17,690 nucleotides of DNA, from NCBI GenBank assembly GCA_003345595.1, contig PRDI01000008.1, positions 1 through 17,690 on the forward strand, read 5' to 3'. This document shows, in pieces, positions 167 through 17,690 of the stretch. How positions within the stretch are numbered: the stretch's first letter is position 1; every line of letters starts with the position of its first letter. The position numbers were made by a program, and so were the translations under genes. The notes beneath the pieces are model-generated. The model ran no database searches, was not told the origin of the DNA, and saw only the letters and a program-made list of their open reading frames with translations. The stretch comes from Candidatus Thorarchaeota archaeon. GTDB lineage: Archaea > Asgardarchaeota > Thorarchaeia > Thorarchaeales > Thorarchaeaceae.

Positions 167-2572
167 ATGAGTGAGGTGCAGATGCAGCTCAGCTGGAGCA
201 CAGTCGTGACCGGTTTTGTGATCAGTATGGCACTGGTAATGGGCATGATTGTCGCTATCATGAACCCCTCGTATTCAACCAGGTTCGGGCCGCCGTTTGG
301 CACCGGGAGCATCGACATCGAGTACACCTCGGAGATAAACCAGACCCTCGGCCAGTCTGTCACGAGGGAGTATTCGCCATCCGTGAGTCGCGTCGTTTTG
401 CTGAATGAAACCCCCCTCCACCAGTACCTAGGTGTCCAAGTGCCCGTATATGACTATGATGAGGTACACGTGTCCGCAACCGTGGAGGCAGTGAGCGACG
501 TTGTTGCTGCAGAACTTGTCGTCTTGATCCACTTTGCCAACTCCACATCACGACATATCGAACAGACGATAGAGAGGGGTCAGTGGACAAATCTCGTTCT
601 CACAGTTGACATGGATTCGGTAAGAAACGCATCATCCTCTTGGACGAACTACTGGCACATCGAGGTTAATCCATATGAGGATCTCATCTGGCACAATGTT
701 GCGGTATGGGCTAGTTCTTCCAAGCCATTGTCCAGAGTGATTGTGGATGTTCAGTCGACGGCGGGCGCAAGCCTGTTTCAGTACGAAATGATGAGATTTC
801 TGGCAGAGTCACCTTACTTGGACGTCGGTAGAGAGAACGAAACCAGAAGCGGGTTCTCTCTACACAAGGCCAACTGTTCGCTCTATTTGGCCCCGGGGGA
901 GATAGCGGGCCTCATAGGATGGGGCAGTGATTCCAACATCTATGATGGCCTCCCGCTGAATCTCACGATTCATGAAAACGAAACCGTTCGGTGGAACATC
1001 AGGATTCTAGCGATAAGATTGGACTTTGCAGTCAACGTAAGGTGTTCGGTAGGCTATCTCTGGGTTTATGGGTCATCGGACCCTGGTACGCATGTAGACC
1101 TCTACGATGCCCACGTTGACTTCGACAGACTTGACTCCCTCTATATGCCCCCACGCCGTTCCCTATATGTCGAAGTGCGCTGGCTTGATTTGCTCGGGGA
1201 TTATAGCAAATCGAACTACCGGGAGAGAGCAGAAGGACAAGCGGGGAACTGGTCAGCACCACTCGGCACAGAAAACATACAGATTTCTATTGAGTTCCCG
1301 GGCTGGGATGCTTATGGTTTCGCACTGAATACCGGCGATATGCTTCTGTTGAGCTCTGGATTGATGTTGATGGCTGCAGTGATAGTTCGGTCGGCCCTCC
1401 TTGTGCCTAGGAAACCGGGCGACGGACTGCGTCTGGGAAGCAGGCTAGTTCCGATCATCTTGATGCTTGGGTTGTCACTGTTTCCTTGGTATGAGTCGTC
1501 AAGAACCATATCCGACTGGTGGAACGCCGCCAACCCAATACAAGTGAACATGGTATTGTTCGGACCGATTCCTGTGATTCTAGCATCGACATCTGGCTCC
1601 CTGATGTCTTTTATTCTGCCGCAGTCTGCTCTGTACTGGGCGGCTCTTGCGTTCTTCGTGTACTGGCTGCCCCTGATCTACGCTACGGTGAGGGCGCCAG
1701 CGGCTAGTGACTGGGCTGGGAACTTGCGTAGGGTGTTCCTTCTCGCAATGCCAGCGCTCTACGCACTTGTGTTCCCGGTCGTGATGCCTCTCCCAGTCCA
1801 TCTTGAACTCGTGCCAACCCCCGTAGTCTTGCTCACGTACATCGTTCCGATAGCTTGGCTTGCCGCGGCCACTATTGCGCTACTGCTTGAACGCCACAAC
1901 ACACGAGTTCGGGCATTATCCACAGGAGGTTCTGGCAAGAGTGGGGGTTTGACTGAGCAGGTATCCAGCAAGGCTGCCCAGGCATCCGCCTCCGAATCGG
2001 ACTCATCCCGGCTTGGGGCGGTCCTGTTCACCCGAGGACTTGGCAACAGAAAGGTGAAACTGCTGCTAGTGCTCCTGCTGTTGTCGCCGACGCTCGTAGG
2101 GTTCCACTACGCATCACCTCAATATGACTGGCAGTCACAGCGCTTCGAGGTGCTCGAAGGAATCGTATGGGAGTTTCCAGCTCTTATCTATCCCCTTCCG
2201 TTCGCCTATTCTCAGGTGGCCGGCTTCGATGTCATGTGGTGGCTGTTCTCAGTCCCATACGTCTTATGCTGCTACATCGCCATCGTGTTTCTCTGGTACT
2301 GGACGAGAAGAGGCACAGGCAAGGGTTACGTCAAAGCCTCGCTCTTCCTCGCGTTCACGGTATCGGTTGCCGCGCTCGTTGTTCGCTTTCCAATCCCGAG
2401 CTACCTATCCACAGTATGGGTTCCCACACCGATATCTGTGATAGCCATCGCTATCGCCTTGGGAGTTCAAGGCTCTAGTGCTGACCATTCGCCTAGGTCA
2501 GTACTCGCTGTCAAGGGGCAAGGTGAGCCGTTGACGGTCGCTCCCGCATCGTCTGGAACCACAGATAAATGA
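167..2572 (+). CDS. Large polytopic membrane protein of unknown function (N-terminal anchor, ~350-aa likely extracellular domain, multi-TM C-terminal region)
   Basis: ORF of ~800 aa with an N-terminal hydrophobic helix (VVTGFVISMALVMGMIVAI), a beta-rich soluble region with many N-x-S/T sequons (NQT, NET, NST, NAS, NCS, NLT, NWS), then two clusters of hydrophobic helices split by a Gly/Ser-rich linker. Start uncertain: TTG 143, ATG 167, or ATG 182 (GAGGTG at 173-178). TATA-like TTATAG at 125-130. Confidence 0.8.
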   Translation: MSEVQMQLSWSTVVTGFVISMALVMGMIVAIMNPSYSTRFGPPFGTGSIDIEYTSEINQTLGQSVTREYSPSVSRVVLLNETPLHQYLGVQVPVYDYDEVHVSATVEAVSDVVAAELVVLIHFANSTSRHIEQTIERGQWTNLVLTVDMDSVRNASSSWTNYWHIEVNPYEDLIWHNVAVWASSSKPLSRVIVDVQSTAGASLFQYEMMRFLAESPYLDVGRENETRSGFSLHKANCSLYLAPGEIAGLIGWGSDSNIYDGLPLNLTIHENETVRWNIRILAIRLDFAVNVRCSVGYLWVYGSSDPGTHVDLYDAHVDFDRLDSLYMPPRRSLYVEVRWLDLLGDYSKSNYRERAEGQAGNWSAPLGTENIQISIEFPGWDAYGFALNTGDMLLLSSGLMLMAAVIVRSALLVPRKPGDGLRLGSRLVPIILMLGLSLFPWYESSRTISDWWNAANPIQVNMVLFGPIPVILASTSGSLMSFILPQSALYWAALAFFVYWLPLIYATVRAPAASDWAGNLRRVFLLAMPALYALVFPVVMPLPVHLELVPTPVVLLTYIVPIAWLAAATIALLLERHNTRVRALSTGGSGKSGGLTEQVSSKAAQASASESDSSRLGAVLFTRGLGNRKVKLLLVLLLLSPTLVGFHYASPQYDWQSQRFEVLEGIVWEFPALIYPLPFAYSQVAGFDVMWWLFSVPYVLCCYIAIVFLWYWTRRGTGKGYVKASLFLAFTVSVAALVVRFPIPSYLSTVWVPTPISVIAIAIALGVQGSSADHSPRSVLAVKGQGEPLTVAPASSGTTDK

Positions 2573-2762: not shown

Positions 2763-3698
2763 ATGAATCAGGCGGAAATAAGAGAAACTGCAAGAATGGT
2801 CGAGATGGCAGGTCTCTCCAGTCCGATGCTCAGAGTGTTTCAGGTCAGGAGCGATTATCTTCTCCCATCTACATATGTCATCGAGTCCCCGAGTGCTCTG
2901 AAGATTCTGCTACGACCTTGGATTGTGGGAGGGAAGCTGGCAAGCTATGCACGAAGGAGTACTGCCGAGTTTCTTCGTGTGGCGTACGGAGTTTCCGAGG
3001 AATTGAGGGACTCGCATCTTGGGACTGTAACAGAAGTCATTCCGCTTGCAGGCTCTCTCTACTATGGTGTCGCGGAAGCATTTGAATCAGTCTTTGGAGA
3101 GCCCATCAACCGCTGTTTCATTGGTGCGAAGCGTCAGCTATCACCAACAGGTTGGGTGACCGAGCTTGCCTACGAGAACTTCGAGGCTTTATCGCCTGAG
3201 TCGGTGATCTTGATAGGGGACACTATAGCAACAGGTGGGACTATCGAACGCATCTTGGACGCCACGCTGGCCCGCGGTCCAGATATACGTGCAGTGATTG
3301 TCTATTCCATTGCAGGTGGCCTGATAGGGGCGCACCGTCTGAAACAACTCGCTGAACGCTTGCATATTCCCATCTATCTCTTCTTCTCTAATGCGATATT
3401 CGGTGTCGAGTCGAATGGTACGGACATGCCTTGGCTGCATCCGGGCACCGTGGTTTCCCCTGGAATCAGAGCGAAGGCGGAGAGCACCTATGGCACTGAT
3501 TTGGGACGCCGCTGGTGTTGTGTCTGGGACTGGGGCGACCGAGCCAAGCAACCGCTGAAGCATCTCGAAATGCTGTTGGCACGTTGCGATGAGGAACTGC
3601 ATGCTAACGTGACAGAGAAGACCAAGAACGTCCTTGAGAAGGTAAGACGGGAAACTCAGAATGCTCTTGAGGAATGGAAAAAACCGCTGCAGCTCTGA
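2763..3698 (+). CDS. Type I phosphoribosyltransferase, divergent uracil-PRTase-like
   Basis: PRPP-binding loop VILIGDTIATGGT; C-terminal WDWGDR resembles the UPRT GD(A/F)GDR motif. Start moved from 2625 to ATG 2763 because GGAGG lies at 2751-2755 and TATA-like TTTTTAAG at 2685-2692. Confidence 0.7.
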   Translation: MNQAEIRETARMVEMAGLSSPMLRVFQVRSDYLLPSTYVIESPSALKILLRPWIVGGKLASYARRSTAEFLRVAYGVSEELRDSHLGTVTEVIPLAGSLYYGVAEAFESVFGEPINRCFIGAKRQLSPTGWVTELAYENFEALSPESVILIGDTIATGGTIERILDATLARGPDIRAVIVYSIAGGLIGAHRLKQLAERLHIPIYLFFSNAIFGVESNGTDMPWLHPGTVVSPGIRAKAESTYGTDLGRRWCCVWDWGDRAKQPLKHLEMLLARCDEELHANVTEKTKNVLEKVRRETQNALEEWKKPLQL

Positions 3699-3767
3699 AG
3701 CATTCTGCCAGCGGTGCAGAACACGTTGTTTAAGTCATGACCAGTAGTAGTCGGGTGGGGCAAACAG

Positions 3768-4796
3768 ATGGCACTGACTGATGAACAGAGGGAGCGATAC
3801 TCCCGGACTCTGGCTCTCCGCGACTTCGGAGAGAAAGAAATGGTGTCCGTCTTGAGAACCACGGTATCTGTGGTCGGGGCCGGCGGACTGGGCAGCCCGG
3901 CACTTCGTTTCTTGGTGGCCATGGGCTTTGGCAAGGTCCGTATCATAGACCGTGACATAGTGGAGTTGTCCAACATCCAACGACAGACCGTATACAATAC
4001 GAGTGACATCGGCCGACCAAAAGCGGAGGCAGCCGCCTCTAATCTTGCGCTCATGAACCCCGATGTGGAGTTTGAGCCGATCACAGTATCCATAGACATG
4101 AACAACGCCCAAGACCTGTTGAAGGGTTCGGACATCATCCTAGACGGTCTAGATACTGTCCAGTCAAGACGCGCTGTCAACTTCGCAAGTGTCAGACTGA
4201 AGATACCCTACGTGTTTGCGGGCGCAATCGAATACTATGCTAACATCACGACATTCCTGCCGGGGCAGACCGGGTGTCTACAATGCTTGATGGGCGATGT
4301 TCAAGACAACCCTGAGAATACGTGTCAGAGGGTCGGTGTTTCACCAACGCTCTTGCCCATGGCAGCTTCTGTAGAGGTTCAAGAGGCTGTCCTCATAGCA
4401 GTGAGTCGGCATCCTCGTCTGGCAGGACGCCTGATGGCAATAGACATGAACGACTTGGCCTTTGACTTCTTTGACATAGGGCGGGTGGAGGACTGTCCTG
4501 TATGTTCAGCCCCAACAAAGAGAACAGCAGAGAAGCACGATTCTCCATCTGTCACTATGCTCTGTTCGGGCAGCTTCAACATCTCCCCGGCGGGACCCAC
4601 TGCCATTGACACTTCTGCTGTGGCAAGACGTGCGAAACGGAAGTACAAGGCAGTCGAGCGACCGGGGTTTGTGAGAATCGAAACAGACGTCGGTGCACAG
4701 ATTACTATCATGCAGAGTGGAAATGCGATCGTGAAAGGCGTCAGTACAGCAAGCCAAGCTCTTCACTTGTATCAGGAGATGCTGAACGGGTTCTGA
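3768..4796 (+). CDS. ThiF/MoeB/HesA family E1-like adenylyltransferase with C-terminal extension
   Basis: RYSR, GAGGLG nucleotide-binding loop, DRDIVELSNIQRQ, Zn motifs CLQC and CPVC, putative catalytic Cys in NTCQRVG. The ~90-aa C-terminal domain resembles the long (~340 aa) MoeB/ThiF forms. TATA-like TTTAAG at 3729-3734. Confidence 0.93.
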   Translation: MALTDEQRERYSRTLALRDFGEKEMVSVLRTTVSVVGAGGLGSPALRFLVAMGFGKVRIIDRDIVELSNIQRQTVYNTSDIGRPKAEAAASNLALMNPDVEFEPITVSIDMNNAQDLLKGSDIILDGLDTVQSRRAVNFASVRLKIPYVFAGAIEYYANITTFLPGQTGCLQCLMGDVQDNPENTCQRVGVSPTLLPMAASVEVQEAVLIAVSRHPRLAGRLMAIDMNDLAFDFFDIGRVEDCPVCSAPTKRTAEKHDSPSVTMLCSGSFNISPAGPTAIDTSAVARRAKRKYKAVERPGFVRIETDVGAQITIMQSGNAIVKGVSTASQALHLYQEMLNGF

Positions 4797-13911: not shown

Positions 13912-14304
13912 CTACTTGACTGCAACGTCCTTTTCGCTCTTCCAGAGACCGTGGATGTTACAGTAAGAAGTAGCCATGAGAGTTCCTGGTTTCGTTATCT
14001 TGAATGCAAATACTGCGAAGGGTTCAGTGTACAGCGGACCCGTGTTCGGGCCTTGAGTAGACTCTCCGTGTGTGTCGAAGGTGGCATAGCCCACCTCCAT
14101 CGGGAACTTCTCTCCATCAGCCCAGAAGAACAGGTCTAACCACTTTATGTGATGCTCGGTGACATTCGGGTGTGGAATCTGTTTTCCGACAGAAACGGTC
14201 ACCTTCACCACCTCTCCTTTCTTCACAACATCAGGAGCCTCTATCACGGGCACATGCTTTTCACTCTTCCAATCAGCAGTCTGCATCCATGTCTTGTCTG
14301 GCAT
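13912..14304 (-). CDS. sor: Superoxide reductase, 1Fe type (neelaredoxin)
   Basis: EKHVP, HPNVTEHHIKW and YCNIHGLW iron-site motifs; no desulforedoxin domain. Likely start ATG 14304 after GAGGT. Confidence 0.95.
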   Translation of the reverse strand: MPDKTWMQTADWKSEKHVPVIEAPDVVKKGEVVKVTVSVGKQIPHPNVTEHHIKWLDLFFWADGEKFPMEVGYATFDTHGESTQGPNTGPLYTEPFAVFAFKITKPGTLMATSYCNIHGLWKSEKDVAVK

Positions 14305-14419
14305 TCTTCCCAACCTCTATGTCACAATACAGGACATCCGTTGAGGTCTGTCCTCTATATTCACTATGTGCCAGCTGTTAAAACACTTCTCCTATGTTAC
14401 ATAATGGAAGGGCCTTGGA

Positions 14420-15913
14420 TCAGTCAGACAGCCGCTCAAGCTGATTCAGTGTCCACTTCCCGCGTTCTGACAGCTCATAGTATCTTCGGTATCTGCCATC
14501 GAAGGTTCGTTCAGACCGAGTACTAGCAATGAGGCCACTTGCCTTCAGTTCCACAAGGTGTTGGTACACACTCGGGATTCTGAGTCTGACTCCATGGTCC
14601 TCCTGAAGACCCTTCCAGATTTCGTATCCATAAGATTCACCCTTGGCCAGAATGTGTAGTATATGCACCTTGGTCTTTCCCAGATGGGTGGTGAATCGTC
14701 GATCCTCGACCTGACTGAGCAAGTTTTCAAGCTCGGTTCTGCCCTTGACCAGCGTTCTGGCAATCTCAGGGTATTTCAGTCCCATGCCTGTTATGACACA
14801 AACTACGCGGTCAGTCCGGCTTATCTCCTTAGACTCCATGAGTGCCCTCAATGCGGCAATCGACGTTGCTGATGAAGGTTCAGCGAACACTCCCTCTTGT
14901 CGTGCCAGATCACCCAACGCCTTCAGGATGTCCTTGTCGTGTACAGCTATCGCATGGCCCCTCGATTCACGTATGGCATTGAGGGCCATCCGTCCACAGG
15001 AAGGTTTCTTCACACTGATGTCGAGCGAAAGTGTTGACACCGTTGCACATGGGCTGACTTCGTCTGCATTGCTGTCAAAGGCTTCCACGATTGGAGCACA
15101 GCCCTTCGCCTGCACACCCACAAGCTTCGTCTTGTTGGTTTCAAGGAGGCCAACCTGATTGAGTTCGCGTAGTCCTTTCCATATCATTGAAAGATGACCT
15201 CCATTCCCCATCGGGACTATGATCCAGTCTGGTCCGGTCCATTGAAGCTGTTCGCACACCTCATAGACCGTGGTCTTCACACCCTCAAGAAAATGTGGAC
15301 TGGATGGGCTGATGATGCGACTGTGAGATGATTCTTGGTTGGCTCTTGCTTCGGCCTCTTCATGGTCCCTGACCACTTCGACATCCGCCCCATATGCAAG
15401 AATCTGGTAGAACTTCCCGACGTCCACACCCCCTCTTTGTGGAATGAAGACTTTGCTGCTAAGTCCTGCTCTTGCGGCATAGGCGACAAGAGAAGCTGCC
15501 AGATTGCCAGTTGATCCGCAGCACATCGACTTGAACCCTCTCTCCTTTGCGACCGAAACCTCCACTGCGGTTCCCCTGTCGATGAATGCACCGGTAGGAT
15601 TGGTAGTTTCGTCCTTCAGGTACAGCTCCTGCATCCCGGTACTTCTTGCCAGTCCATCACACTTGTGAAGAAAGGTACCACCTTCCCCCAGAGAAACAAC
15701 AGTGTCAAGGTTCACGACTGGGAGAAGCTCAGAGTACTTCCAGATGCCCGGCAACCGCCGCGCAAGCTCAGTGCTTTTGAAACGCCTTCTCAGCTGACTG
15801 AGGTCATAGGTCACATTGAGCACGCCATCGCACACAGCGCAGATAGTGATTCGTTCATCTGACGGGTACTCATGGCCGCACTGAGTGCATTTGAGTGCAG
15901 TAACGAAGGACAT
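14420..15913 (-). CDS. Threonine-synthase-like fold-type II PLP domain lacking the catalytic Lys, fused to a C-terminal PadR-type winged HTH; predicted transcription regulator
   Basis: N-terminal Zn ribbon (CTQC...CAVC), SLGEGGT, NPTGAFIDRG (canonical NPTGSFKDRG), STGN, PMGNGG, EPSSA, TGMGLK. The last ~85 aa (ILHILAKGESYGYEI...SVYQHLVELKASGLI...RRYYELSERGK) match the PadR pattern. Confidence 0.9.
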   Translation of the reverse strand: MSFVTALKCTQCGHEYPSDERITICAVCDGVLNVTYDLSQLRRRFKSTELARRLPGIWKYSELLPVVNLDTVVSLGEGGTFLHKCDGLARSTGMQELYLKDETTNPTGAFIDRGTAVEVSVAKERGFKSMCCGSTGNLAASLVAYAARAGLSSKVFIPQRGGVDVGKFYQILAYGADVEVVRDHEEAEARANQESSHSRIISPSSPHFLEGVKTTVYEVCEQLQWTGPDWIIVPMGNGGHLSMIWKGLRELNQVGLLETNKTKLVGVQAKGCAPIVEAFDSNADEVSPCATVSTLSLDISVKKPSCGRMALNAIRESRGHAIAVHDKDILKALGDLARQEGVFAEPSSATSIAALRALMESKEISRTDRVVCVITGMGLKYPEIARTLVKGRTELENLLSQVEDRRFTTHLGKTKVHILHILAKGESYGYEIWKGLQEDHGVRLRIPSVYQHLVELKASGLIASTRSERTFDGRYRRYYELSERGKWTLNQLERLSD

Positions 15914-15919
15914 AGAATC

Positions 15920-15948
15920 TGCCTATATATAGGCACAGGCTTATATAT
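15920..15948. promoter_or_regulatory. Perfect 16-bp palindrome (candidate operator) next to a TATA box in a divergent promoter
   Basis: TGCCTATATATAGGCA at 15920-15935 is its own reverse complement; TTATATAT at 15941-15948. Confidence 0.7.
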
Positions 15949-16071
15949 CATCCTCCAGCGTGCGCTCGGTGCTGAAGGCACGATGGAGGTTCACTGTCGT
16001 GACATCTGTTCTGACAGTAGCTGCCGACAGGAATCTCGCCTTCGGCAGAACCCTCTTGGTGTTGGTCGGCC

Positions 16072-16680
16072 ATGATGAAGCAATCACGTGCCTTTGGACC
16101 CTACCCGGCGTTTTATGTCGCATTGCTGGCTGTGCTGACCGCGTTGACAACTGTTGCAACACTCATTCTAGCGATTCCATTTCCGACAACACAAGGGTAC
16201 TTCAACTTGGGGGATTCTCTAGTAATGATCAGCGGCTTCCTCCTAGGTCCACTTGGGGGTTTCGTCGCTGGGGGCGTTGGTTCGGCTATGGCCGACCTGA
16301 TTGCGGCGCCAACCTATGCACCCATAACTCTCCTGTCAAAGGGATTAGAAGGAGCACTGGTCGGACTCTTTAGTCGTCGCACTCGAAGGGATACGAAACT
16401 CGGTTGGTGGGACATTCTTGGTCTACTCCTTGGCGCTACTGCCATGTTGACCGGATACCTGTTCGGAGAAACCCTCGTACTCGGCTTCTCTTGGGAGGTG
16501 GCAGTCGTAGAGATGATTTCGATTAACTCAGTGCAGGTAATCAGCGGCGCAATCGTGACAGTGTTAGCGGGGCCTGTCATCAGGGAGTATCTAAGGGGAA
16601 CGACATACTGGCCCGGAGATGAGGGCGTCGGGACCATTGAGAATCTGCAGCATGATGATCAGTCTGTCAACAGTCTTTAG
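16072..16680 (+). CDS. ECF transporter S-component (COG4720; HmpT/PdxU-like)
   Basis: About 6 TM helices; AxxxA motif (LLAVLTAL), IPFPTTQGYFNLGD, LGPLGGFVAGGVGSAMADL, YAPITLLSKGLEGALVG. Substrate is inferred from the family, not shown. Confidence 0.9.
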   Translation: MMKQSRAFGPYPAFYVALLAVLTALTTVATLILAIPFPTTQGYFNLGDSLVMISGFLLGPLGGFVAGGVGSAMADLIAAPTYAPITLLSKGLEGALVGLFSRRTRRDTKLGWWDILGLLLGATAMLTGYLFGETLVLGFSWEVAVVEMISINSVQVISGAIVTVLAGPVIREYLRGTTYWPGDEGVGTIENLQHDDQSVNSL

Positions 16681-16823
16681 TTCATGAATGGCGGAATCCG
16701 AGCTTCTTTTGATGTTGTTAGAAACGAGAGTCGACTGGCCGTCGGAATCTTTTATTTGGACGCACTCAGCAACACTCCTTGGTCCACGGACAATGTCAGT
16801 GTCAACACCAGAAGGTACGCTTG

Positions 16824-17690
16824 ATGATTGATAGAAAGAGGTTCAGGATAGGTCCTGAGAATCTAAGGAAGGTCAACGATTTTCTAGTACGTGAGGACAA
16901 TCCGCTCACGACTGGTCTCCTCGAAGTGATTGACAAGTACGGCGGTGTTGATGAGATCAACAGAAAGGCGCACGAAGCATGCAAACTGGAGAACCTAATT
17001 GCTCAACTTGAAACAAGAAAGTCACCGTTCGTGCGGGATCTAAGATGGTTGGAGAAACAACGTGACGAGAGTGCCTTCATCAGTATTCCAGAATATCGAA
17101 CGAGGATACTAGGTGAGAGAGCAGGGTCAATGGTGTTTGACGACAGCTTTGCCGTGACCCTAGAGATAAGCGCATGCCAGTACTTCCCATGGATAATCGA
17201 GGAAGCGCATCATGCCATTGATGACCGAGATCTGATGCCCGGGCGTTTCATTCGAGTGAGGAACATGAAGGAACAGACTGCAGATGATCAGGTGATCGCC
17301 TTTGCTGCGGCCATGCAAATCGTTGGCTCATCGTATGTTGAGACACTCGACACGAAAGGGACTATGCTTGGACCCGACGGAGCCCCCGCGAATGTTCATC
17401 TTGGTGGTCCTGCGACAATCACGGGCTACTTCGGCGGCGTGGGGATGCCAAACGACTTTCCTCTCAGGTGGGCAGACGAGTATCTTCACTACTACACCAC
17501 CTATGGAGTGAAGCAGGTATTGAATGTGAACTCTGGTAGCATACTTGTCGGCTACATGATGCATAAGCTAGGGATAGACATGGAGTTCAAGATCTCGGTT
17601 TTCACAGGCAATGACAATCCCTTTGCGTGTCTATGGACAATGATGACTGCGAAGCTTTTCAGTCGAAGCGATGGCAGCAGTCCTCTGATC
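16824..17690 (+). CDS. Hypothetical soluble protein, 3'-truncated by the window edge (absent from ORF track)
   Basis: Manual translation gives 289 open codons from ATG 16824 to the window end (MIDRKRFRIGPENLRKVNDFL...LFSRSDGSSPLI); GAAGGT at 16811-16816; TTTATTT at ~16750. Confidence 0.85.
   Translation, partial: MIDRKRFRIGPENLRKVNDFLVREDNPLTTGLLEVIDKYGGVDEINRKAHEACKLENLIAQLETRKSPFVRDLRWLEKQRDESAFISIPEYRTRILGERAGSMVFDDSFAVTLEISACQYFPWIIEEAHHAIDDRDLMPGRFIRVRNMKEQTADDQVIAFAAAMQIVGSSYVETLDTKGTMLGPDGAPANVHLGGPATITGYFGGVGMPNDFPLRWADEYLHYYTTYGVKQVLNVNSGSILVGYMMHKLGIDMEFKISVFTGNDNPFACLWTMMTAKLFSRSDGSSPLI

Follow-up and report, generated by a model that had tools for sequence, protein, structure and literature searches.

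What does a protein do that has the fold of threonine synthase, lacks the lysine of its active site and ends in a DNA-binding domain? The question is raised by a gene on the minus strand (14420..15913) of a 17,690-nt stretch of contig PRDI01000008.1 from a Candidatus Thorarchaeota archaeon (assembly GCA_003345595.1); this whole stretch is what we call the window. The gene is a single open reading frame (ORF) of 497 codons whose translation, P0001, fuses a threonine-synthase-like (ThrC-like) part to a PadR domain, and we treat it as a candidate B6-responsive transcription factor. We regard it as highly probable that P0001 is a non-catalytic transcription factor. With less confidence, we lean towards the full B6 mechanism, in which a lysine-less sensor of the ThrC fold would act through a PadR output domain to control a gene for vitamin B6 uptake. 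On the best-supported reading, the regulator governs uptake of B6 in this archaeon and, in some of its relatives, synthesis of the vitamin.

The central observation is the loss of the lysine. In enzymes of fold type II that depend on pyridoxal 5'-phosphate (PLP), the Schiff-base lysine both anchors the cofactor and serves as catalytic base. An earlier note on this DNA had claimed that this residue is replaced by isoleucine, and our reading of the ORF together with its alignment to four solved threonine synthases confirms it. The motif reads NPTGAFIDRG (residues 105-114; 15572..15601, minus strand), and Ile111 sits exactly under the lysine of NPTGSFKDRG (phmmer; 2ZSJ, 6CGQ, 2D1F and 1UIM), such that P0001 does not carry the SFKDRG signature with the Schiff-base lysine of threonine synthase. 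Counted along the alignment, Ile111 corresponds to residue 61 in the numbering of 1UIM, which we take to be the Schiff-base lysine of the Thermus enzyme. As the note had also stated, the codon (ATC at 15583-15581) is two substitutions away from AAA/AAG, the reading frame is open and the other motifs are in place: GSTGN (133-137), PMGNGG (234-239), EPSSA (345-349) and TGMGLK (375-380).

The same loss extends through the family. The 120 best homologues of P0001, which are 51-65% identical to it, come from Asgard archaea of the Thor, Loki, Hod, Odin and Sif types; together with the query (n=121), they present isoleucine in 106 cases, leucine in 15 and lysine in none. A PadR domain is recorded for 119 of the 120, the exception being P0117 (433 aa). 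Orthologues that keep the lysine would have spoken against the earlier note, and lysine is found in 0/120 close homologues and in 0/56 representatives of the wider clade described below. Nothing beyond the missing lysine speaks for a sequencing error or a decaying thrC pseudogene. This explanation would require two substitutions in an intact frame of 497 codons, and more than 170 independent homologues, drawn from several archaeal phyla, carry the same class of residue, with length and domains conserved. We consider it refuted by this conservation and assign it a negligible probability.

A full PALP domain (residues 73-376; 14786..15697, minus strand; Pfam 5.8e-65), which we read as the sensor domain, is of the threonine-synthase-like, fold-type II PLP-enzyme kind. 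It is preceded by an N-terminal zinc ribbon with four cysteines, C9, C12, C25 and C28 (15830..15889, minus strand); three of these (C9, C12, C28) do not vary among the 65 fused homologues of alignment A1, and C25 hardly does. The C-terminus carries a PadR-type winged helix-turn-helix (wHTH; residues 418-490; 14444..14662, minus strand), which scores 49.7 bits with PF03551 (cut-off 27; E 3.8e-13), and the PadR regulators 5DYM and 5ZHC align to residues 413-492. Within this domain, Y450 and H452 of the helix segment VYQHL (449-453) are nearly invariant, as is L456. It is the sole DNA-binding domain detected in P0001; no GntR-type wHTH is found at the N-terminus, and the effector part is a PALP domain of fold type II rather than of fold type I.

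We built an AlphaFold2 model of P0001 from 65 homologues. Its mean predicted local distance difference test score (pLDDT) is 93.2 and its sole disordered stretch is the linker at 404-409. The PadR part is modelled as three helices, a beta hairpin and a C-terminal helix, with a pLDDT of 90-98 across the wHTH. The top Foldseek matches of the model are the threonine synthases 2C2B, 6CGQ, 2ZSJ and 1UIM (E 1e-27 to 1e-31); relative to solved threonine synthases, P0001 presents 34-38% identity and a target TM-score of 0.84-0.88.

The loss of the lysine can be placed relative to the gain of the PadR domain. We divided by architecture the best 150 of the 50%-identity representatives retrieved by an exhaustive search. 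This yielded a PadR-fused clade A (n=56), in which the lysine column holds L, I, V, M, T, N, F or A and never lysine; a second PadR-fused clade B (n=9), in which the column holds R in six proteins, K in two and S in one; 71 unfused relatives, all with lysine; and nine fusions to a LeuA allosteric domain, also all with lysine. A FastTree phylogeny was computed on the enzyme part with the lysine column masked, leaving out one N-terminally truncated clade-A entry. It unites 54 of the 56 clade-A proteins and three truncated lysine-less entries in one clan with a branch support of 98. One clade-A protein, P0163 (alanine in the lysine column), has an unresolved position among lysine-bearing sequences, and clade B is distinct (support 99) on the lysine-bearing side of the tree. 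The masked tree and the split by architecture therefore indicate that the loss of the lysine coincides with the PadR fusion, which answers the earlier note's proposal to check for their co-occurrence: no fused protein of clade A keeps the lysine and all 71 unfused relatives do. The loss within clade A was probably a single event.

Several observations concern the fused proteins outside clade A. Clade B comprises P0165, P0168, P0193, P0199, P0206, P0209, P0210, P0219 and P0263 (loci L099-L104 and L112-L116), proteins of about 420-475 aa with the motif NPTNSF[RK]DRA and with arginine, lysine or serine at the Schiff-base position. Its genes often adjoin a transporter component of the same type as the one described below for P0001, mostly in convergent orientation (L099, L112 and L114-L116), and others adjoin GINS and MCM genes. 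Since clade B is also often next to this type of component, the association with the transporter is likely older than the loss of the lysine. The members of clade B that keep the lysine may show what the fusion was like ancestrally. The lysine-keeping proteins of 610-633 aa (P0174, P0191, P0198, P0216, P0217, P0222, P0230, P0233 and P0253) constitute another, separate regulatory-looking fusion of the threonine-synthase fold: a C-terminal LeuA allosteric/dimerisation domain (PF08502) was found in P0174 and P0191, which were scanned, and the other seven were grouped with them by length and position in the tree. A back-translated pattern scan of genome contigs returned mostly canonical threonine synthases because the lysine position had been left free in the pattern; it yielded seven usable fused loci, among them L015-L018, L020 and L025. 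The last, from a Bathyarchaeia genome, holds an arginine-type fused gene (NPTNSFRDRG; 891-2150, minus strand) about 1 kb from a canonical lysine-bearing thrC (3118-4401, plus strand).

Might the protein nevertheless retain enzymatic activity, as a threonine synthase or some related lyase that either dispenses with the canonical lysine or employs another base, its PadR domain serving autoregulation as in RbkR? Profile searches would suggest so: P0001 passes the cut-off of the NCBIfam thrC model NF006050 (PRK08197, 'threonine synthase') with 332.3 bits against 303, and scores 201.2 bits against a cut-off of 167.1 with TIGR00260. Homologues of P0001 bear the label "threonine synthase" at NCBI and JGI, and the earlier note's prediction that such genes would be mis-annotated as thrC is therefore correct. 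One further thrC model, NF004170/PRK05638, which also spans the PadR part, reached its cut-off in 0/14 control genomes. The archaeal RbkR offers a precedent for a protein that is both enzyme and regulator (PMC8305020), and the second fused clade keeps lysine or arginine at the site (P0193, P0209, L115).

Against a residual enzyme stands, first, the distribution just described, with lysine in 71/71 unfused relatives and in 0/56 clade-A proteins, where the replacements are mostly aliphatic. There is, secondly, no substitute. Within its enzyme part, the family conserves four lysines at 90% or more, namely K100, K167, K213 and K380; all are equally conserved in the lysine-bearing relatives, and no family-specific lysine is found among the conserved columns of clade A when compared with those relatives, which answers the concern of the earlier note that another lysine might have taken the site. 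Thirdly, the genome has a lysine-bearing thrC. The assembly (2.73 Mb, 129 contigs, 83% complete) holds such a gene, with the motif NPTSSFKDRG, divided over two contig ends (L006 and L008): one piece at C87:4-705 (minus strand; NF006050 profile positions 3-242, 301 bits) and the other at C36:15854-16204 (minus strand; positions 263-385, 87 bits). The split is an assembly break and not gene decay. The lysine-bearing fragment shares the N-terminal cysteine motif, and a PRK06381-type gene with the lysine is also present on C85 (364 bits). The second canonical thrC that the earlier note had proposed to look for is thus found, and the task of threonine synthase is taken by a separate lysine-bearing gene. 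We consider a retained enzymatic role for P0001 very improbable. Every refuting test of a maintained pseudoenzyme that the note had named and that could be run in silico came out in favour of the note's view.

If the protein is not an enzyme, does its pocket still serve a purpose? In clade A, the pocket residues are strongly conserved (F110 92%, D112 and R113 100%, G136 96%, N137 87%, G236 94%, G238 100%, T375 98% and G376 100%). Taken together with E345, these columns are 87-100% conserved, at least as well as in the lysine-bearing relatives, against a mean column identity of 43% in the family. Four columns are conserved in clade A only, namely L138, G166, Y169 (93% versus 1%) and D298 (79% versus 0%). 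The last aligns inside the TAIRIGNP segment of 1UIM, which we presume to be part of the active-site region. Conversely, S134 falls from 90% conservation in the canonical relatives to 36% in clade A and T294 from 90% to 34%. We read this pattern of residues as that of a pocket under selection for binding a cofactor-like ligand and not for catalysis.

These figures bear on a further alternative, in which the dead enzyme domain is a dimerisation scaffold that binds no small molecule and control is exerted through the abundance of the factor or a protein partner. The missing catalytic lysine would fit such a scaffold, and threonine synthases and PadR proteins are both dimers. A mere scaffold would account neither for a pocket that is so much better conserved than the remainder of the protein nor for the new family-specific residues Y169 and D298, and we judge this alternative improbable.

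The nature of the ligand is suggested by the gene neighbourhood. Divergent from the ThrC-PadR gene, on the plus strand (16072..16680), lies a gene for the S-component of an energy-coupling factor (ECF) transporter of the HmpT/PdxU2 type (PF07155, 1.1e-31), the likely regulated target. The only PDB sequence that this S-component matched at E values up to 10 is chain S of 4HZU, which is HmpT, alias PdxU2; the match has an E value of 5.9e-10 with the single sequence and of 5e-26 with a profile of 16 S-component orthologues, covering residues 10-159 of the 166 in the chain. HmpT/PdxU2 has been discussed as a pyridoxine transporter, with pyridoxamine proposed as substrate (PMC4860826). An EcfT (CbiQ) gene is located on contig C114. 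The pairing is widespread: the ThrC-PadR gene adjoins an S-component gene in 13 of 18 sampled clade-A loci from Asgard archaea, Bathyarchaeia and Nitrososphaerota, and these comprise, besides the locus in the window, two Thor loci (L010, L015), one each from Loki (L012), Hod (L013) and Bathyarchaeia (L016), two from Nitrososphaerota (L017, L018) and those of five more Asgard genomes (L105-L109). In two others of the 18 loci, both from Asgard genomes, the neighbour is pdxS or pdxST: the ThrC-PadR gene is divergent from pdxS-pdxT in one (G020) and lies 44 nt upstream of pdxS in the other (G007).

A ligand-sensing transcription factor might respond to something other than B6, for instance threonine, homoserine, O-phosphohomoserine, hydroxymethylpyrimidine or a PLP-amino-acid external aldimine trapped by the lysine-less pocket. 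Lysine-to-alanine mutants of PLP enzymes do retain external aldimines tightly. The sensor also descends from an amino-acid-metabolising enzyme, hydroxymethylpyrimidine was the cargo originally predicted for HmpT, and the one arginine-type fused gene mentioned above is near a canonical thrC. However, both recurrent neighbours, the PdxU2-type S-component and pdxS/pdxST, indicate B6; the near-substrate columns S134 and T294 are relaxed; and genes of the threonine pathway are never recurrent neighbours in the sampled loci. We therefore consider a ligand other than B6 unlikely, although less so than the scaffold.

The region between the two divergent genes contains a candidate operator. A perfect 16-bp palindrome, TGCCTATATATAGGCA (15920..15935, unstranded), with the core CCTATATATAGG at 15922-15933, lies 6 nt upstream of the ThrC-PadR ATG, and next to it is a second, degenerate box with a TATA-like element (15937..15948, unstranded; ATATATAA on the minus strand at 15941-15948). 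The 12-bp core has a single exact copy in the assembly, where 0.135 are expected. In 10 of 15 clade-A loci, a match to the palindrome with at most one mismatch stands no more than about 35 nt from the start codon, relative to a genomic background of 2.3e-4 per 160 nt, and the palindrome is kept beside the ThrC-PadR gene in Thor, Loki, Hod, Bathyarchaeia and Nitrososphaerota loci. The conserved arrangement of two boxes can be written as ATATATA[AG]G-N6-CCTATATAT, and the boxes stand at an 18-bp phase in L097, L098, L108 and L109. The TATA-like element of the upstream box is about 32 nt from the ATG and the palindrome falls between this TATA and the start, which is the usual position for an archaeal repressor to bind.

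Three copies of the palindrome with one mismatch elsewhere in the assembly (C24, C59 and C120) were not counted as members of a regulon. The copy at C24:6082-6093, CCGATATATAGG, is followed after some 40-50 nt by a hemerythrin-like ORF and probably represents an ordinary TATA box rather than a second operator. The intergenic region itself is longer here (158 bp) than in L010, L012, L013 and L015 (about 81 bp). The additional part, within 15949-16071, contains an inverted repeat (15952-15963 with 15978-15989, 92% complementary), and no Rfam family, riboswitches included, matched the 158-bp region at E values up to 1.

Taken together, these elements suggest how the regulator may work. The pocket would bind a B6 vitamer non-covalently, either PLP or a closely related compound, for instance pyridoxamine or pyridoxine phosphate (PMP, PNP). 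This binding would shift the enzyme-like domains, and the PadR dimer would then bind with higher affinity to the box pair ATATATA[AG]G-N6-CCTATATATAGG. This pair covers the stretch from TATA to start in the regulator's own promoter, within the shared divergent control region, so that its occupancy when B6 is plentiful would turn off both the regulator gene and the divergent HmpT/PdxU2-type uptake gene. In other lineages, the same regulator would be placed beside pdxS or pdxST instead. The sequence features, their conservation through the family, the gene neighbourhoods, the conserved palindrome and the lack of detectable B6 synthesis genes in the assembly are observations; within this scheme, we infer the identity of the ligand, its non-covalent binding, the binding to DNA and the sign of regulation.

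A number of points weigh against this B6 mechanism. A B6-related neighbour is absent in 3 of the 18 sampled clade-A loci, and among 11 genomes of the same family, five lack the ThrC-PadR gene. The substrate of the S-component, presumed to be a B6 vitamer, is assigned by homology to HmpT, which was itself first predicted to carry hydroxymethylpyrimidine and whose assignment to B6 comes from context, simulation and limited assays (PMC4860826). Because the cores of the palindrome and of the boxes are TATA-like, their conservation may be due in part to promoter function; a specific protein site is favoured by the conserved CC/GG flanks and by the fact that the palindrome occurs only once in the genome. 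The proposed non-covalent binding of the cofactor and the fit of PLP beside Ile111 are drawn from conserved pocket residues, whose roles we take from structural work on the Thermus enzyme. In T. thermophilus ThrC, T88, N154, S155 and R160 presumably bind the phosphate of the substrate, and P0001 presents L138, S202, P203 and F208 at the aligned positions. These altered residues say little, because the nearest lysine-bearing relatives are also variable there. Finally, no clear pyridoxal kinase was found in the assembly (best PF08543 match 21.5 bits), and the salvage route that would follow uptake is therefore incomplete as annotated.

The supply of B6 in the host speaks for the link to the vitamin. 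PdxS, PdxT and PdxJ were not found in the 83%-complete assembly, and PdxS was found in 0/11 genomes of the same family (88-99% complete); across the Asgard genomes sampled, PdxS was found in 19 of 81. The lack of detectable PdxS in the host family points to B6 auxotrophy and to reliance on vitamers supplied by the community.

How does this system compare with known regulators? The closest bacterial case is PdxR of the MocR group, whose regulons comprise pdxST, pdxK and pdxU and whose members have been reported absent from Archaea (PMC5320631). Like P0001, PdxR/MocR proteins combine a sensor with the fold of a PLP enzyme and a winged helix in a single polypeptide (PMC5320631), and their operators, like the candidate operator here, consist of repeated boxes. 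The neighbourhoods are also similar: the pdxR gene is divergent from pdxST and has the transporter gene pdxU in its regulon, and the ThrC-PadR gene adjoins a PdxU2-type S-component or, in the two Asgard genomes noted above, pdxS/pdxST. The MocR effector is, in contrast, a fold-type I aminotransferase-like domain, and its wHTH is of the GntR type and N-terminal, whereas P0001 has a threonine-synthase-like effector of fold type II and a C-terminal wHTH of the PadR type. Moreover, GabR holds PLP through a lysine aldimine, and P0001 has lost that lysine. Because effector fold, DNA-binding domain, domain order and lysine all differ, P0001 is not a member of MocR; by analogy, the ThrC-PadR protein is best read as an archaeal functional analogue of bacterial PdxR.

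Three other comparisons are informative. With the archaeal zinc-ribbon threonine synthases (PRK08197/NF006050, TIGR00260), P0001 has in common the fold, the zinc ribbon and most pocket motifs; it differs in the change of lysine to isoleucine, the relaxed S134 and T294, the new Y169 and D298 and the appended PadR domain, and the genes of its family stand in a context of B6 uptake or synthesis, unlike one of threonine biosynthesis. Classical PadR proteins have about 110-180 aa and bind their ligand at the dimer interface. P0001 resembles PadR regulators (PF03551; 5DYM, 5ZHC, 6ABQ) in having a wHTH of some 75 residues with a C-terminal helix after it, in its palindromic candidate operator and in its probable autoregulation, but it carries a 400-residue enzyme-derived domain ahead of the wHTH. 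RbkR, a riboflavin kinase fused to a helix-turn-helix, is like P0001 an archaeal one-component vitamin regulator derived from an enzyme-fold fusion, but it retains enzyme activity and is bifunctional (PMC8305020). P0001 lacks the catalytic residue and the vitamins differ. ThiR is another archaeal vitamin regulator derived from an enzyme.

Two further neighbours of the ThrC-PadR gene deserve mention. Directly downstream on the same strand lies a desulfoferrodoxin (superoxide reductase) gene (13912-14313, minus strand), a placement that is retained in Thor (L010) and Loki (L012) loci, where a rubrerythrin gene is also near. On the other side, co-directional with the S-component gene, is the start portion of a gene for a conserved 426-aa protein without an assigned function (16779..17690, plus strand, 3' end open). 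The protein is present at full length in L015 (883-2163, minus strand), is 78-91% identical across Thorarchaeota, far above the ThrC-PadR protein, and has more than 8000 database homologues. In Thor and Loki loci, but not in Hod, its gene comes after the S-component gene in the same orientation, and the two genes may form one unit in the Thor and Loki lineages, which we state with uncertainty. No Pfam or NCBIfam family matched the protein and the ESM Atlas returned nothing useful. Its AlphaFold2 model (pLDDT 71) presents a TIM-barrel-like fold over residues of about 105-420, for which Foldseek gave no match below E 1e-3 and VIA-align gave generic TIM barrels only (Z 7-8.6).

A full-text search of the literature found no paper on the ThrC-PadR family, which is not proof of absence, and no description of a regulator of archaeal B6 uptake or synthesis. 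We see an even chance that the family is the missing regulator of B6 homeostasis in Asgard archaea, Bathyarchaeia and Nitrososphaerota, with a new mode of sensing: the covalent lysine anchor would be replaced by an aliphatic residue, Y169 and D298 would be gained, and the free vitamer would be read reversibly, with a preference for PMP/PNP or the reading of a PLP-amino-acid aldimine as possibilities, leading to repression of PdxU2-type uptake or pdxST through boxes that overlap the TATA element.

Hundreds of archaeal genes annotated as "threonine synthase" probably encode regulators. Since NF006050 lets P0001 through, metabolic reconstructions overestimate threonine biosynthesis in Asgard and other archaea. 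The PadR fusion and the loss of the lysine in a single clade, next to a sister fused clade that still has lysine or arginine, constitute a clean natural case of the conversion of an enzyme into a sensor. The ThrC-PadR family would fill a gap in the control of B6 in Archaea, and, at the level of ecology, these Asgard archaea may depend on B6 vitamers from their community.

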